NCBI GenBank assembly: GCA_054600435.1
Contig: BAAIJX010000043.1
Span: 1-64,000 of the forward strand
Direction: 5' to 3'
From: Neophaeotheca triangularis
Taxonomy: Eukaryota
Length of the DNA stretch: 64,000 bases
The number at the start of each line of letters is the position of its first letter. Within the stretch, counting starts at the first letter, position 1. The notes under the pieces are model-generated. The model was given only the letters and a program-made list of their open reading frames with translations. It was not told the DNA's origin and did no database searches. The position numbers were made by a program, and so were the translations under genes. This document shows positions 25,066-33,329 of the stretch, piece by piece.

Positions 25066-26151
25066 ATGTCGACCGAGACTGCAAGCCCGAAGCTGGAGAA
25101 GAAGAGCAAGAGCAAAGATGGCTCGGAAAAGAAATCGAAAAAGCGAAAGCACCAAAGCGACGAAGCTGCGACCGATGTAGCGGCCGAGCAAGTCTCTACG
25201 AAGAAGCAGAAGAAAAGCAAACATGATCGCAAAAGCGACGCAGCGCCGGTGTCGCAAGAGCAGGGCGAGGCCAATGGAGCAACTTCACCAAAGAAGTCTG
25301 AATCGCAATGGGCGCTAAAAGCAACCACGAAAAAGACCAAGAGGAAGCAAAGAGAGAGTAACACCGAGGATGGAGATACTGCACCAACGCAACCGCAGTC
25401 CTCAAGTGCAGGAGCCAGTGTAGCACATGTCGAGTCCGATATTACTGAAGAAAATCTCGAAAAGCACACCCCTTTCGTGCAACAAACTGCATCGCTCTAC
25501 CTCCCTATCTCACCAATGGCGCACAATTTCCCCATAGCAGGACTTTGCGGCGAACACATATCACCGCACCTACTGAGCTATTACGCTCCTCTCAAAGCCG
25601 TCATGCTCTCCTACAGCAATCCTCGACTCTCTGAAACCGCCGAAGAAGCCGAAGAGCGCAGTCGCAATTCCACAGAGTCCGGGAGAACCATACTGGCGAG
25701 GAGTATTGACGAATACGCCGTCACTTTCGTGTGGCTTACGGCAGAGTACTTGCTATTCAGGCCGCGCAAAGGGACGGTGATGGAGGGGTATATTAATGTA
25801 CAGAATGAGAGTGTATTGGGGTTGGTGTGTTACAACTATTTTAATGCGGGCATAGAGCGGCAGAGAATGCCGGAAGACTGGAAGTGGGTTGGTGGTGAGC
25901 GGCAGGGAAAGAAGGAGGGTGAGGAGGCCGTGGAGGGGTGCTATGTTGATGGGGAAGGGAAGAAGGTTGAGGGTCGGGTCGTGTTTAGGGTGGTTGACTT
26001 TCAGGCCAATGGAGGGTCTGAGCTGGGTGGTGGGAGTATTGATATAGTGGGTAGTTTGTTGCCAAAGGAGGAAGACGCAAAGATGGAGGAGCAGAGTCGG
26101 CGAGACATGACTGAGAATGACGGAAACGGTGGGAGGAGGTTGGGTCGTTAG
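25066..26151 (+). CDS. RPA43: RNA polymerase I subunit A43
   Basis: Lys-rich N-terminus, then SLYLPISP, HISPHLLSYYAPLKAVMLSYSN, FVWLTAEYLLFRP, EGYINVQNESVLGLVCYNYFNAGI and IDIVGSL, consistent with the Rpa43 tip and OB domains. Confidence 0.85.
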   Translation: MSTETASPKLEKKSKSKDGSEKKSKKRKHQSDEAATDVAAEQVSTKKQKKSKHDRKSDAAPVSQEQGEANGATSPKKSESQWALKATTKKTKRKQRESNTEDGDTAPTQPQSSSAGASVAHVESDITEENLEKHTPFVQQTASLYLPISPMAHNFPIAGLCGEHISPHLLSYYAPLKAVMLSYSNPRLSETAEEAEERSRNSTESGRTILARSIDEYAVTFVWLTAEYLLFRPRKGTVMEGYINVQNESVLGLVCYNYFNAGIERQRMPEDWKWVGGERQGKKEGEEAVEGCYVDGEGKKVEGRVVFRVVDFQANGGSELGGGSIDIVGSLLPKEEDAKMEEQSRRDMTENDGNGGRRLGR

Positions 26152-26716: not shown

Positions 26717-29516
26717 ATGGCGTCTTTACGCCTTCGTCTCCGCATTGAGCGCAACGAGCTGCCTCCAGTCTGCACTCTCTGGCCAGTCGCTCCTGCACAG
26801 CTGAAGTCTACCATCGCCCAACTACTGGAAAACGTCAATCGCACCTTCCCGCTCGAGAGTCCGGACTGGGGCTACGAAGATTACGCTGTGCTCATTGCAG
26901 GCTACGAGTGTCTGCATTACCACACCATCGAAGCGGTTTGTAAGGATGAAGACGAGATCACCATTCGCCCGCTGCAGTATGTGGATCTTCGAGCTAGGAC
27001 TATGACTGGAAGGGATCAAATCACGAGAGATGGCAGGCATTTGTTGGACGGTGTACCTTTCGGTCGCCCGGCTCTTAGGGGTCCCGTGAGGCCGGAGGTG
27101 AATATTCCCGCGAGGAAGAGGAAAAGGGTTGAGCTAGAGGAGCAGGATGCGCAGGATGAGCGTGCGGCTCTTCCGTACGGGGCATTGGCTCAGGATCTGT
27201 GGGCGAACAGTGGAGACGAGCGGGGAGAAGGTCAGACCCAAGGTATGCTTCCGAATGGCTTTCCTGTAGGGTTTGCGAACCGAAGCTTTGCTACCGAAGC
27301 TGCCACGCGTTTCTACATAGTTCATAGAATGAAGACTGATATTATCATCGCAGAGGATGAGCCACCAGAGCTGTTGCAGATTGACGCACCTCCTGGCAAG
27401 AAGCAGAAGCAGAAGGGCGGTTTCCAACGTGAGAGGCTTACTGATCATGAGCTTGATTCGATCAACAACGGGCTCAGTACGCTAAACGATGGAATAGGTG
27501 CTTCGTTGCACGGCAGCGCGAAGCGTCATATCCAGACTGGTAGCGATGGTGCAAAGCGCCGTCAGCTTCTACAAGCATACCATGAGGATGAAGACGATGA
27601 AAGTGATGACGACTTCGATCCCGACGCTGGCGATTCTGACGATACCTCCGCATCCTCTTCTAGTGATGCAAAGGACGCGGTGTATTTCGAGAAGGGAAAA
27701 GGCGTTTCCGACCATGATAGCTCAGACGCCTCTGACTCGGAAGACGAAGCATTCGAGGGTTTCCCAATTAGTGCCCCGCCAACTCCCAGACCCGGTGCTC
27801 GACCTCACCTCACGATGGCGTCTGAGTCATCAGAATTATCAAGCGACAGCTCGGATTCCGACGCAGACTCGTCCTCACTGAGCTCCGATTCTGAAAGTTC
27901 CTCAGACAGCTCCCCAGACAGCTTCTCGGACAGTTCCTCGGACACGTCCTCAGTTGCTGGAACAAATGACAAGGCCCAGTCTGGAACCGCCAACGAGCCT
28001 GTCAAGCGCGTAGAGTCCAACGCCGCACCCAAACAAGTCGGCGTACCTTATACAGGTAAACAGACCACCAAGTCACGCAACGCCAGGCGCCGCGACGCGA
28101 GAGAGCTCCAGTTCCTCAAAAATTCCAACGTCCTGCCACCCAACGCTGATCTCGCGTCACTTGCTACTTACAAAACCAGCCTGAGCAACAACAATAACAA
28201 CAACAACGACAAGATGATGACTGATGGGCAGAATGGAGGTGCATCTGGAGAGCCTGTTGCTGACATGTCAGCGGGCGCTAGGGCGAGTGAAGAGGCTTCC
28301 TCGACTACGCTAGACCACGTCGCAGCGGCTCCCAACGCGTCTACTGCGGCCTCGATAGAGCTGGAGAAGCGACGTGAAGAACTCCTTGCTGCCATTAAGA
28401 ACGGTGGCGTGGATGTCACGGAGCATCTTGCGCAAAAAGCTCCTACGAAATCTGCTGCAGAAGTAGATGAAGATGGACCACCAGAGGAAATTCGAAACCC
28501 GCCAGCGCCCGAAATCGATGGAGATGCTGCAATGGCCGACACGCCTGAGCAACAGACTCGCAAGAAACGCGACATGACAGCAACTCAGCGTCTGATCTTC
28601 GGTTCGCTAGGGGTACGCAATCCGAAAAGCAAAGAGGATCGCGAGAAGGTCCAAAAGAAACTACAAGATCGCAATCAGAAGTATAGCAAAATCGAGGGGG
28701 AGGTGCTTGCCGCTTCCAAGGACGACCAGCAGCTAGCAGAGAAGAAGACAGTGGATTGGCGCGACGTGCTCGATCTCAGAGCTGTCGAGTGCACCGACCC
28801 AAGCATCAAGCTCAGTACACCACCATTCCCGTTCCGGCAGCGCTGGGACCCACAGCAGCAGCTGAACCGCAAGAAGAACAAGCGTGGAAACGAGAACGTT
28901 TATTCTGCTGGAGGCAAGAAGAGTAGGAAGCTGAACGACAGGTCCCCTGAGAGCTACGACAAGTACAACACCAATGGCGAGGGCGATGTCCTAGACTACG
29001 GCGATGAGGAAGTCACGGAAGGCGTTGATCCCGCCGCCGCGCAATTGCAAGGTGAGGCCGCTGCAGGTGCCGTCGAGGACGACTTCCCTCCCCTCCCTGT
29101 CGACCTTGTCACCCTTGCACCACTGAATGAGACCGATGCCAGCGTCGACGACGTCATCACCTCGACCAAGCTCGCCTGCGACGCCACGACTGAGTGGGCT
29201 CCGGCCATGAAAACCACCACGCTGAAGCTTCTCGGCAAACCCTCAATCGGGGGCAGCCAGTGGAAGCTACAGCTCGCCGCCCGCGACGTGCCCGAGAAGG
29301 TCTACGACGAGCACGGTGAACGCGTGTATGGCAAGTTCGAGGCGGCCGGGTTCGACGACGACGAGGAGGATGAGCAGTTCAAGCAGCTGGCTTGGGCGGA
29401 TCTGGGGGAGGTGCGCTTGTTGTTGCGTGGTCGTGAGTATGCTCCTGCCGCAAGTTTTGCACAGAGAAACCAGAAGCTAACGGATGAGTTGGGCAGAACA
29501 ATCGCCGACCGCTTAA
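26717..29516 (+). CDS. Coilin-like protein (N-terminal ubiquitin-like self-association domain, acidic/Ser-rich disordered middle, C-terminal Tudor-like domain)
   Basis: ATG at 26717. A terminal intron 29433-29496 (GTGAGT...GCTAAC...CAG) gives the ending LLLRGQQSPTA*; the unspliced ORF ends at 29569. The gene itself is well supported; the coilin identity is by-eye motif similarity (see findings). Confidence 0.65.
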
Positions 29517-30932
29517 GCTTCGACTTTGAGCTGGCCAGACTGGCGTCTAAGCGTCTCTCCGGGCGGTAAGGTGGTGTTGTTGCTGGTGGTCGGCCTTGCG
29601 TGCGGTGATCACCGTGTGTACTGTTGTTGCTGTCGCTGTGATGGCGGTGTTGAGACAGCGAGCCTCGCTCTGCTGCAAGTGCTCGATGAAGCTTAGCTAG
29701 CGGTTTGTAATTTTGCATGTAATATACATATGTGCACCAACGCGTTCTTCTTAGGCCTCCTGCCATGCGATGCGCTGTGTCTGAAGGCTAAGCAACGAGC
29801 TCCGAGCGAATCGTGAATCAATCCCCTCGCAGTCCTCGGTGAGAAGCTAACGAGTATTACAGGTCAATGGCAGCGTACGCCTATCGTCGTGCTTACAAGA
29901 ACCAGCACCGACAGCACCGAGGGTCGGTGCTGATGGCATATGTCCATAGCTCCTTCAGGAATAGCCAGCTCCCATCTCGTCGGGCACTGGAGTCACAGAT
30001 TACAATAACACCAGATCACTGATCCGACGCTCTACTCCGGGCGAGTCTCTGCAGGCTCCACCGCTACCTTCAGCTCGCTAGATAGTGCGCTGACAACGAA
30101 GAGGCGGCCACGGTCTACCGAGCGACTCGGGACACTACAAGCTCTGTCGAGCCGCGATGCTTTGCTTTCTATCTCCTTGAGTCGCTTGCAAACCAAACAT
30201 GGCGGTCTGTACCAGCTCTTCCACTGCCTCTAGCCGACCAGGTATGTTACCGACAACGACTAAGTAGCCGCGGTGTGCAGGCGCATTTATAGGAGGTACC
30301 GTTCCGATCGAGCCGTAATGATCTCTGTCTTGCCAGGCACCTCGAGCCAGTCGCGGCCATTTCGGCTTGCTTGTCTGAGCATCGAATCACTTATTGGGAG
30401 AGAGTGACCTATTAGCCAGCGGCATGGTGCTGACAACTTCGCGGCAGCCCGATAGGCGCCTTTGGAACACACAGCCACAAAGCACGAAACATCGCTGAAG
30501 TTCCCTTAAACGCCGTCATTTCTTCAGACGGCTATAATAAGAACGGCTATGCACAATACTGACCCTAGCATGTCTGTCAACCCACAACGTAGCATCTGAT
30601 GAAGGGTTCAGGATGCTAGGCATCGAGGCTTTCTATTGTAAGGAAGCGCCAAGCGGTTCCAGCTGCAAGTACGGCGCTTAATCTTTGGCCAGCGAAGACG
30701 CTTCATATTTGTCGCCATCTTCTCGGCATGAGATACAGACAACTAAGTTGCGGGCTCGAGATTCGAGGCGTGTTGCTCCCATGCAGCCTCAGAAACTGCC
30801 TGTGCCGTGAAGATGCGATGTGCCTTCCTGGATACCGTGAAAAAGGCTATAAAGGCGCCGCACGACATCCTCGATAGAATGCAACTCAGAATGCAAGGAG
30901 CTTCTTTTCGTTGAGAGTCATAATATACCGCT

Positions 30933-33329
30933 ATGGAACATTTGCCGCTTGGTGAAAACGCCAACATCATAACCGTTCCCTACATCGCAAATACTACTTA
31001 CGACGACGGAGACTTCTATTCGTACCCAACCCGGCAAGACTACGAGTTCTGGGAGCTGGCCAAGCGCTCGGACGCTGAAGGATCCCATGGAACCCTCGCG
31101 GCTCTGACTAGAGGCCGTACTCTTGACAATCTTGCGGCGTTCATTCAAAGCTGGTTGTTTTTTGGACTGCTTCGCAGTTGCGTGGAACCAAAGCCGGAAA
31201 GTAAAAATTACGTCCTGCAGTCACCAGTCATAACCACGGAGCACCTTGGCCGCGATCTTCTGGTATGGAAACAGCATGTCTATGCGAAACGAGACATAGA
31301 TAGGGCCGCCAACGCCAACACTACCCGGGACTGCATCGACAAGGCTATCATCGCCGTCGCCATCCTGGATGAGATCGCCAGCCGCGGAGCAGCGCGTACT
31401 TCTGATCAGGAGGGGCTTAACAAGGTTTGGGAGCAGCTGTTCCTATGCGAGTCCCTGATCTCAGCTCTTGCGAACGCACAGAGCAAAATTTTTGGGGCGG
31501 GACATCCGTCCACCATCACGCAAACGGCATCGATTATTGGCCGCATGCCAAGTTGGCTGGGGAACAAGTTCAGGGAAAGCGGCTGGTGTCCTCACACTGT
31601 CAGCTACCTCAAGGCGTACTTTCGCGTGGATCTTCAGATGTACGCTTACGGTCTAGGAACCGAGCGCTCCCGCAAAGACCATCGCAAGTGCTCTGTTGGG
31701 CACTGCGATCCAGTCGACCTTGAGAACGCGAAGACGCCACGGCATACTGCGACGTGTAGGGGCTGCAAAAGCGTCGGGCCTCCATTGGACGACCTTGTGC
31801 GAGTGCTTTCCAGCGGACAGATTCCCATCATATCGTTGGGGACGACTTCAGACGATGATAGCTGCTTGAAGCTTCAAGTCGACAGAGCGAGACCGGAAGA
31901 CGATTACGTCGCGATATCGCATGTCTGGTCTGACGGGATGGCAAACTCGCATGCCAACGAACTGCCAATTTGTCAGTTGCTGGAGCTTCGCAAGACCCTG
32001 CTGCAGGTCGGTTCCAAACTGTCGATCCAATACCAGTTAAAGAGGACACTACTGCCCGTTTGGTTCGACGCCCTATGCATCCCCGCCGACGAGAAGTACC
32101 AAGCCTTGCGGAACTTTTCTATCAACAGCATGTTTCGTATATACAAGGATGCCTTAGCCGTCCTCATTTTTGATCCCGACCTGCGGAAGTTGCAAAGCAA
32201 CACACCTCCCCTAGAAATCATGGCGAGGACACTTTTCTGCGGCTGGAGTGGGAGGCTGTGGACCTTCCAAGAAGGTTCGGGGCGAAAGAAAGAGAAGTTC
32301 CTAGCAGCGGCAAACACAGTCTTCGATCTTGACGATGTAATGTTGCGCGGCCGCGTGGCTGAACAGAGCGGTCGGCCTGAAGCGCTCCAGTACAGTTTCA
32401 GCGGAACTCTGGAGCAGCAGCTATTCCAGCGCGTTTATCTGGACCCAAACTATATCACAGAGCTAGGCAGCCAACAGCTACTGGCGGCCATTTCCCATCG
32501 CATCACTAGTCGTACGGAGGACGAGCCGATCGTGATTGCTAGCTTTTTGCAACTCGATGTGTCCCCAATTGAGGCCGAGACTCTGCGCGAGAAACGAATG
32601 ACAAGGCTCTTGCAATCCATGACTTGGGTTCCGCGGAATATTCTCTTTGCCACAGGCCCCAGACTGAACACACCTTCGAGTCCGCCGGGATTCGCCTGGG
32701 CGCCTCGAACTCTTTTGGCTCCATACGGGGTCGGAGACCATGTCGTTGACCATGTCGTTCAATCTAGGTACGATGACCAGACAGTTGCAGGTGCCGAGAA
32801 CCCAACGGCAGCCACCACGCGAAGAGGTAGACGAAGAAAATCAGAGAGTCTGTGCCTGTTCCAAGCAAAGCAAGCTGCCTTCAAAACAGATGTTGCCGCT
32901 TCTCTGCAGCTCTGTTATCTGCATCCGAGTCCTTGGTTTGGCCTTGCTGCCTTCTTCCCAGGGATCAACATCGACAGACCAGTAGATGTTAGTAGTGGCC
33001 ACTTCACTCTGAGAACGCAGACCAATGATCACTTCGCGGTTCGGACTTCTGGCGAAGGTCGGCAGCCGCGCCAAAAGTCGGAACCACCCTTGGCGCTCAT
33101 ATTGAGCATGATCAGCCCCGATGGGATATGGAGTCCAGCCCTGTTAGTCACAGTCCACGGAACTGTAGCTAGCGACCCAGCCAACCCCGATCGAGAATTT
33201 AGCATGGCTCGATCGTTACAAAGAGTGACCGCTTGCTCTTTCGATCCGAGAAACACCAAGTTCCTGTTGAAGATGCCAGCCAAGGCCAGTTATTTCAAAC
33301 CTCGTTGGTGGCTTGTTGACCCGGTCTAG
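30933..33329 (+). CDS. HET (heterokaryon-incompatibility) domain protein
   Basis: Single 798-aa ORF with HET motifs YVAISHVWSDG, WFDALCIP, MFRIYKDALAVL and WSGRLWTFQEG. The N-terminal region carries QSWLFFGLL, GWCP and His/Cys clusters. Confidence 0.88.
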   Translation: MEHLPLGENANIITVPYIANTTYDDGDFYSYPTRQDYEFWELAKRSDAEGSHGTLAALTRGRTLDNLAAFIQSWLFFGLLRSCVEPKPESKNYVLQSPVITTEHLGRDLLVWKQHVYAKRDIDRAANANTTRDCIDKAIIAVAILDEIASRGAARTSDQEGLNKVWEQLFLCESLISALANAQSKIFGAGHPSTITQTASIIGRMPSWLGNKFRESGWCPHTVSYLKAYFRVDLQMYAYGLGTERSRKDHRKCSVGHCDPVDLENAKTPRHTATCRGCKSVGPPLDDLVRVLSSGQIPIISLGTTSDDDSCLKLQVDRARPEDDYVAISHVWSDGMANSHANELPICQLLELRKTLLQVGSKLSIQYQLKRTLLPVWFDALCIPADEKYQALRNFSINSMFRIYKDALAVLIFDPDLRKLQSNTPPLEIMARTLFCGWSGRLWTFQEGSGRKKEKFLAAANTVFDLDDVMLRGRVAEQSGRPEALQYSFSGTLEQQLFQRVYLDPNYITELGSQQLLAAISHRITSRTEDEPIVIASFLQLDVSPIEAETLREKRMTRLLQSMTWVPRNILFATGPRLNTPSSPPGFAWAPRTLLAPYGVGDHVVDHVVQSRYDDQTVAGAENPTAATTRRGRRRKSESLCLFQAKQAAFKTDVAASLQLCYLHPSPWFGLAAFFPGINIDRPVDVSSGHFTLRTQTNDHFAVRTSGEGRQPRQKSEPPLALILSMISPDGIWSPALLVTVHGTVASDPANPDREFSMARSLQRVTACSFDPRNTKFLLKMPAKASYFKPRWWLVDPV

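Follow-up and report, generated by a model that had tools for sequence, protein, structure and literature searches.

Coilin of animals and plants consists of an N-terminal domain (Coilin_N, PF15862) that is predicted to adopt a ubiquitin-like fold, a disordered middle in which basic clusters occur, and a C-terminal Tudor-like domain (Tudor_Coilin, PF23086). In the N-terminal domain, R8 and D79 act in self-association and R36 acts in binding of Nopp140 (PMC9556525), while the Tudor-like C-terminus binds Sm proteins and small nuclear ribonucleoproteins (snRNPs) (PMC10494742). In S. pombe, Mug174 shows weak similarity to coilin in its N- and C-terminal domains, contains a disordered middle and binds Tgs1 via its N-terminus, which is also needed for localisation (PMC11347179, PMC9666668). 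A second S. pombe protein, Eas1 (SPAC18G6.13), acts together with Tgs1 and is related to Mug174 through its N-terminal domain, the homology being limited to the amino terminus (PMC13473130). These papers, as well as PMC9530788 below, are cited from excerpts of their text. Here, we describe a gene of Neophaeotheca triangularis that is located at 26717 to 29516 on the plus strand of a 64,000-nucleotide stretch (assembly GCA_054600435.1, contig BAAIJX010000043.1, positions 1 to 64,000; hereafter the window) and that probably represents, in the Pezizomycotina, the counterpart of coilin and of Mug174 from S. pombe.

Fungi have long been described as lacking coilin. In 2022, no coilin homologue was reported to be found in yeast (excerpt of PMC9530788), and in the papers on Mug174 from 2022 to 2024 the fission-yeast case is presented as the first from a single-celled organism (PMC9666668, PMC11347179). 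In the excerpts of the Mug174 papers, budding yeast and Caenorhabditis are discussed, while moulds are not. We also searched the literature for Mug174, coilin and Cajal bodies (with the search for fungal orthologues starting from 2022), and among the matches listed none concerned filamentous fungi, as judged by the title and the start of the abstract.

Terminal domains and their relation to coilin

The protein has a folded domain at each end, placed as follows. Residue numbers throughout refer to the unspliced open reading frame of 950 residues (P0001), unless the spliced product is named.

26726 to 27115, plus strand: DUF7357 domain (PF24054), residues 4-133, E 3.1e-52, 176.5 bits against a cutoff of 27 bits, covering positions 1-131 of the 131 in the model
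29072 to 29431, plus strand: predicted beta-barrel of the Tudor_Coilin type, residues 786-905

A first-pass annotation of this DNA had proposed a probable coilin orthologue on the basis of short sequence resemblances. All the strings that it quoted were found in the translation from 26717 on the plus strand, with the N-terminal block LRLRLRIE...VCKDEDEITIRPL at residues 4-86 and the C-terminal block LAPL...VDDVI...WAP...GKF...LAWADLGEVRLL at residues 800-902. It had also named the folds of the two ends as a test, expecting a ubiquitin-like N-terminus and a Tudor-like C-terminus, and both expectations agree with the structure models described below.

We searched the relatives of the protein for Tudor_Coilin (PF23086), which Pfam names 'Coilin, C-terminal Tudor domain' and for which a cutoff of 27 bits applies. 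A match was obtained in 54 of 164, namely in 4 of 8, in 9 of 38 (at E<=1, with six reaching the cutoff) and in 41 of 118 (at E<=10). The highest scores were those of P0235 (56.7 bits, E 3.3e-15) and P0227 (44.8 bits). Using phmmer, the C-domain of the window protein was aligned to residues 748-877 of P0088 (E 2.5e-17), in which the Pfam match spans 772-879. It also aligns to residues 827-939 of P0235 (E 1e-4) and 803-920 of P0227 (E 4e-4), which are the same segments that match Tudor_Coilin. In addition, a profile of the C-domain and its 83 closest relatives was compared by hhalign to a profile of 15 segments with Tudor_Coilin scores at or above the cutoff, and the two aligned over 100 columns with a probability of 99.9% (E 5.2e-33). 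Judged by these alignments, the C-domain and the Tudor_Coilin family of Pfam are homologous, the link running through its relatives.

In the AlphaFold2 model of the C-domain (mean predicted local distance difference test score, pLDDT, 81.4), five strands form a barrel from which long loops extend, and the domain is predicted to be a small barrel of the Tudor/SH3-like type. When the C-domain was placed in a language-model atlas, the nearest cluster was an ascomycete one (0.91) in which 31% of the members carry Tudor_Coilin, a cluster of chordate COIL fragments was found at rank 3 (0.81), and nine of the ten best matches agreed. Foldseek returned nothing at E<=0.001 for this domain, and a sequence search of the PDB gave no rows for either the C-domain or P0121. 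No coilin entry was present among the structure-search matches listed, either for the N- or for the C-domain.

In Pfam, residues 4-133 at the other end are assigned to DUF7357 and to nothing else of note. The window protein is a full-length member of this family, which has no assigned function, and a full-text literature search for 'DUF7357' found no paper. According to the AlphaFold2 model, which was built from 120 aligned sequences, the domain has a ubiquitin-like beta-grasp core at residues 1-87 followed by a helix at residues 88-97. The order of its elements is strand-strand-helix-strand-strand-helix-strand with one further helix, and the mean pLDDT is 77.5, rising to about 90 over residues 1-90. 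With Foldseek, 91 PDB chains were matched at E<=0.001, with SUMO1 at the top (6uyo_C, E 5.7e-5) together with other ubiquitin-like domains. Foldseek and VIA together gave matches to SUMO, ISG15 and ubiquitin, and the model thus places a ubiquitin-like fold at the extreme N-terminus. The PDB sequence search with the N-domain yielded only rows at chance level (E>=0.34). Across the family, R5 and D79 hardly vary, and by their near-equal numbering they may correspond to R8 and D79 of coilin.

The order of a ubiquitin-like domain, a disordered region and a Tudor_Coilin-type domain is the architecture of both coilin and Mug174, and we therefore consider the gene to be the counterpart of these two and not of Eas1. 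The proposal of a coilin orthologue is in this way supported by the two terminal folds and by the Tudor_Coilin link of the C-domain. As judged by published description, Mug174 also comes from an ascomycete and is folded at its N- and C-terminal ends with a disordered region in between, and it is likewise only weakly similar to animal coilin. The window protein resembles animal and plant coilin in its ubiquitin-like N-domain (a predicted fold in coilin as well, PMC9556525), in its disordered middle, which contains basic clusters, and in the Tudor-like domain at its C-terminus, which falls in the same Pfam family by way of the relatives and hhalign.

Several points weigh against this assignment. 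No Coilin_N (PF15862) match was obtained by hmmscan in the protein itself (E<=10), in any of 46 relatives (E<=1) or 64 relatives (E<=10), or in seven pieces that contain the N-domain only (E<=10). For 54 further relatives Coilin_N was not among the families listed (25 of 39). The profile link to coilin that the first-pass annotation had anticipated was thus found for the C-domain and not for the N-domain. Moreover, the ubiquitin-like fold is very common and so not specific to coilin. When DUF7357 clusters were left out of the atlas, clusters of Coilin_N were found at rank 2 (0.82) and rank 3 (0.78), but this lead is weak, with scores below 0.9, agreement among three of the ten best matches and a calibration of 'probably wrong'. 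At this end of the protein, a relation to coilin is suggested by the predicted fold, by its position and by this weak lead. The C-domain of the window protein (residues 771-905) had no direct Pfam match at E<=10, to Tudor_Coilin or any other family, and its link to coilin is transitive. Furthermore, the 950 residues contain no RGG and four arginine-glycine (RG) dipeptides, in line with the earlier remark that no RG box is evident. An RG box between the middle and the Tudor domain is a feature of vertebrate-type coilin and is specific to some lineages. Finally, the comparison with coilin and Mug174 was made via family models, folds and published descriptions, and a second coilin-like gene is possible elsewhere in the genome, of which the 64-kb window was analysed.

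Some of these points also bear on the main rival explanation, which we regard as unlikely. It proposes a nuclear or nucleolar protein confined to fungi that has nothing but Tudor_Coilin in common with coilin, as a result of domain shuffling or deep paralogy. DUF7357 and the mid-region motifs would then serve another job, for instance in ribosome biogenesis or chromatin reading, and the protein would be neither orthologous nor functionally equivalent to coilin. Such a protein would fit the missing Coilin_N match in the members scanned, the separate family that Pfam keeps for DUF7357 and the conserved blocks at residues 86-135, 441-472, 613-654 and 675-722, which match no known family. It would also fit the many relatives of 1200-1800 residues with a long tail behind the Tudor domain, which is unlike coilin. 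The order of the domains, however, is the layout of coilin and Mug174 (PMC9666668, PMC11347179), and the atlas without DUF7357 clusters puts Coilin_N at the second and third ranks of the named clusters. In addition, coilins of distant lineages are reported to be identical only over very short stretches at their ends (PMC9530788), and a missed match to the Coilin_N hidden Markov model is therefore to be expected.

The predicted Tudor-type domain also bears on a second alternative, in which the gene is the counterpart of Eas1, the second member of the Tgs1-Eas1-Mug174 assembly, and has only the N-terminal domain in common with Mug174. S. pombe does have two proteins with a Mug174-type N-terminus (PMC13473130), and in Pfam the N-domain of the window protein is placed in a different family from Coilin_N. 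In contrast to Eas1, the window protein additionally has a C-domain of the Tudor_Coilin type. Moreover, a search for short relatives with the N-domain only gave three fragment-like proteins among 87 candidates, which leaves the Eas1 explanation very improbable. The search of shorter proteins with the Tudor region of P0235 gave one fragment among 49 candidates.

A conserved and spliced gene

Of 8000 candidates scored, 175 were homologous at E<=0.001. Among those with names, the nearest are from the Dothideomycetes (Recurvomyces, Hortaea, Cladosporium and Cercospora), while remoter ones are from the Eurotiomycetes, the Sordariomycetes and one lichen-forming species. Both Neurospora and Aspergillus have members of the family. 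To follow the N-domain on its own, a profile of three sequences was searched against 1.84 billion representatives. It matched 583 representative clusters at E<=0.001, 422 at E<=1e-10 and 198 at E<=1e-30, and the best 150 of the 583, which were listed, were all close family members. The C-domain matched all 83 closest relatives (P0002-P0084) with an independent E-value (i-E) below 1e-10. From these cluster counts and C-domain matches it follows that both terminal domains are conserved far beyond chance. DUF7357 itself was present in all homologues scanned (46 of 46 and 118 of 118).

Conservation is strongest in the N-domain (residues 1-144), in the basic block described below (441-472), in four short blocks of the mid-region (549-568, 613-654, 675-722 and 743-771) and in the C-domain (786-887). 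Many relatives are 1200-1800 residues long and have a long tail beyond the Tudor domain (e.g. P0088, P0109 and P0235). In the Eurotiomycetes and Sordariomycetes, Tudor_Coilin lies in the middle of the protein, for instance at 772-879 of 1260 residues, and is followed by a long C-terminal tail. In Dothideomycete relatives of 700-900 residues, the Tudor-type domain forms the end of the protein, as it does in the window protein.

According to the open reading frame listing, an uninterrupted frame of 950 residues runs on the plus strand from 26717 to 29569. The gene is divided as follows, which gives a spliced product of about 874 residues when both introns are removed.

26717 to 29516, plus strand: whole gene from ATG to TAA with three exons; the open reading frame and the homologues begin with MRLRL at the same place
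26717 to 27242, plus strand: exon 1, with the donor GTATGC beginning at 27243
27243 to 27353, plus strand: probable intron 1, 111 nucleotides, in frame and with no stop codon, GTATGC...ACTGAT...CAG
27354 to 29432, plus strand: exon 2, from sequence signals and an RNA contig
29433 to 29496, plus strand: intron 2, 64 nucleotides, GTGAGT...GCTAAC (branch site)...CAG, supported by RNA
29497 to 29516, plus strand: exon 3, with the stop codon TAA at 29514-29516

Part of the gene was found in a single public run, a marine metatranscriptome (share 0.09), which covers 29006-29432 only. Its RNA contig of 451 nucleotides aligns to 29006-29432, differing at 6 of 427 letters, and its next 17 letters are identical to 29497-29513. 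As the contig jumps from 29432 to 29497, the transcript was spliced exactly at the predicted intron 2, and the match with 6 differences in 427 letters indicates that a very close relative transcribes the gene in the marine sample. The gene end at 29516, as given by the first-pass annotation, requires removal of this 64-nucleotide intron, which the contig supports. The closest homologue, P0002 (879 residues), stops right after the matching ...VRLL motif.

Intron 1 lies outside the span of the RNA contig. Its translation (residues 176-212) is hydrophobic within an acidic region, and on average 12.8 of 120 homologues have residues aligned there. Based on the splice signals and this sparse alignment, 27243 to 27353 is probably a second intron.

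A chance open reading frame or a mis-annotated, non-functional gene is favoured by nothing except the 'hypothetical protein' labels that relatives bear. This explanation is refuted by the 583 representative clusters that match the N-domain, by the residues that are invariant across 121 sequences, by the confident AlphaFold2 folds of both domains and by the spliced RNA contig over the 3' part of the gene. The gene is real, conserved and spliced. We also looked at open reading frames on the opposite strand within it (e.g. 28168-28575, minus strand) and rejected them as genes, as they run opposite to the conserved coding frame and are unsupported.

The disordered middle and a candidate scaffold function

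Between the two ends of the protein no Pfam domain was found. The following features were located in this part, together with the extension that follows the ubiquitin-like core.

26972 to 27121, plus strand: extension behind the ubiquitin-like core, residues 86-135, with ten invariant residues
27113 to 27127, plus strand: basic cluster RKRKR resembling a nuclear localisation signal, residues 133-137, with K134 nearly invariant
27587 to 28036, plus strand: acidic low-complexity region rich in serine and aspartate, residues 291-440, 27% serine and 19% aspartate
28037 to 28132, plus strand: conserved basic block, residues 441-472, containing KSRNARRR at 28070-28093
28553 to 28882, plus strand: two mid-region blocks, residues 613-654 (..RLIFGSLGVRNPK..) and residues 675-722 (..AVEC..STPPFPFRQRWDPQ..)

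The N-terminal domain has ten residues that are invariant over 121 sequences, and every one of them is located in the extension (L86, R94, G98, R99, Q101, G106, D111, G112, G116 and P126). The extension is mostly predicted to be disordered, with a pLDDT below 50 for residues 106-119, and judged from sequence and model together it resembles a conserved linear docking motif. Further invariant residues are present in the basic block (P444, N455 and R457, with G447, T451 and R454 nearly invariant) and in the two mid-region blocks (R625, W681, E691, P705, W710 and D711). The mid-region blocks had no Pfam match to a known family. The motif KSRNARRR, which had been pointed out near 28070, was confirmed at residues 452-459.

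Basic clusters occur at three places, RKRKR (133), RRR (457) and RKKR (615). The long disordered middle thus carries clusters resembling nuclear localisation signals, which from their sequence may serve nuclear import. When the full-length profile was searched against the PDB, it matched only low-complexity segments rich in serine, aspartate and glutamate (e.g. in CWC22 and DEK), and these matches were discounted. A run of seven asparagines is present at residues 497-503 (28205-28225) in the disordered middle, and a repeat at 28178-28222 was skipped in the read matching.

In these regions the protein also departs from the described systems. It differs from animal and plant coilin in lacking a Coilin_N match and an RG box, in its acidic middle rich in serine and aspartate, and in the invariant extension of 50 residues beyond the ubiquitin-like core, which is not described for coilin in the excerpts cited here. 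Compared to Mug174, its family has extra conserved mid-region blocks and often a long tail behind the Tudor domain.

If the gene is the coilin and Mug174 counterpart, its product may act as a nuclear scaffold with an N-terminal ubiquitin-like domain, an acidic disordered middle and a C-terminal Tudor-like domain. The ubiquitin-like domain would self-associate and recruit partners, which are Tgs1 in S. pombe and Nopp140 in mammals, while the disordered middle could provide multivalency and nuclear import. The Tudor-like domain would contact Sm proteins and snRNPs. Jointly, these parts may build Cajal-body-like nuclear foci, which in turn would support Tgs1-dependent cap trimethylation of small nuclear RNAs (snRNAs) and the maturation of snRNPs. 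We infer these steps, and with them a Cajal-body-like function, by analogy, because they are reported for coilin and Mug174.

A further, more tentative possibility is that DUF7357 is an unrecognised fungal N-terminal domain of coilin. In that case coilin would be ancestral to the Ascomycota and would have been kept throughout the Pezizomycotina. Within the protein, conservation is highest not in the ubiquitin-like core but in the predicted-disordered extension (residues 86-135), together with three mid-region motifs for which no described family gave a match. This extension and these motifs may dock Tgs1, Sm proteins or a Nopp140 homologue and could replace the RG box, which would result in a differently wired Cajal-body-like condensate. 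We hold this combined proposal to be possible, with considerable doubt.

Genomic neighbourhood and significance for ascomycete moulds

The genes on both sides were compared to known families, and the gene upstream was found to resemble RPA43.

25066 to 26151, plus strand: open reading frame of an RPA43-like RNA polymerase I subunit, with RPA43_OB at E 3.4e-22; outside the gene and given as context

The position of the gene directly downstream of an RPA43 gene, as had been described for it, thus holds. The N-terminal tail of the RPA43-like protein is rich in lysine and serine. Downstream, the open reading frame 30933 to 33329 (plus strand, 798 residues) has a heterokaryon incompatibility (HET) domain (E 3.8e-8). 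Scans of the window for tRNAs and with Rfam found nothing.

The first-pass annotation had described the gene as hidden behind a hypothetical label. The label does apply to the relatives; however, relatives already carry PF23086 in precomputed annotation, so the protein is less hidden than was claimed. The link to coilin is latent in the databases, where this precomputed match is present on many relatives. The features that it leaves unexplained are the invariant extension behind the ubiquitin-like domain and the mid-region motifs.

The gain in knowledge is incremental, as the kind of protein is known and the Tudor_Coilin model of Pfam already marks about one third of the family. If the assignment is true, a coilin-type scaffold, long thought to be missing from fungi, would be widespread in ascomycete moulds. 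The members in Neurospora and Aspergillus would then allow a tractable study of Cajal-body-like condensates, snRNA cap trimethylation and quiescence in these organisms.

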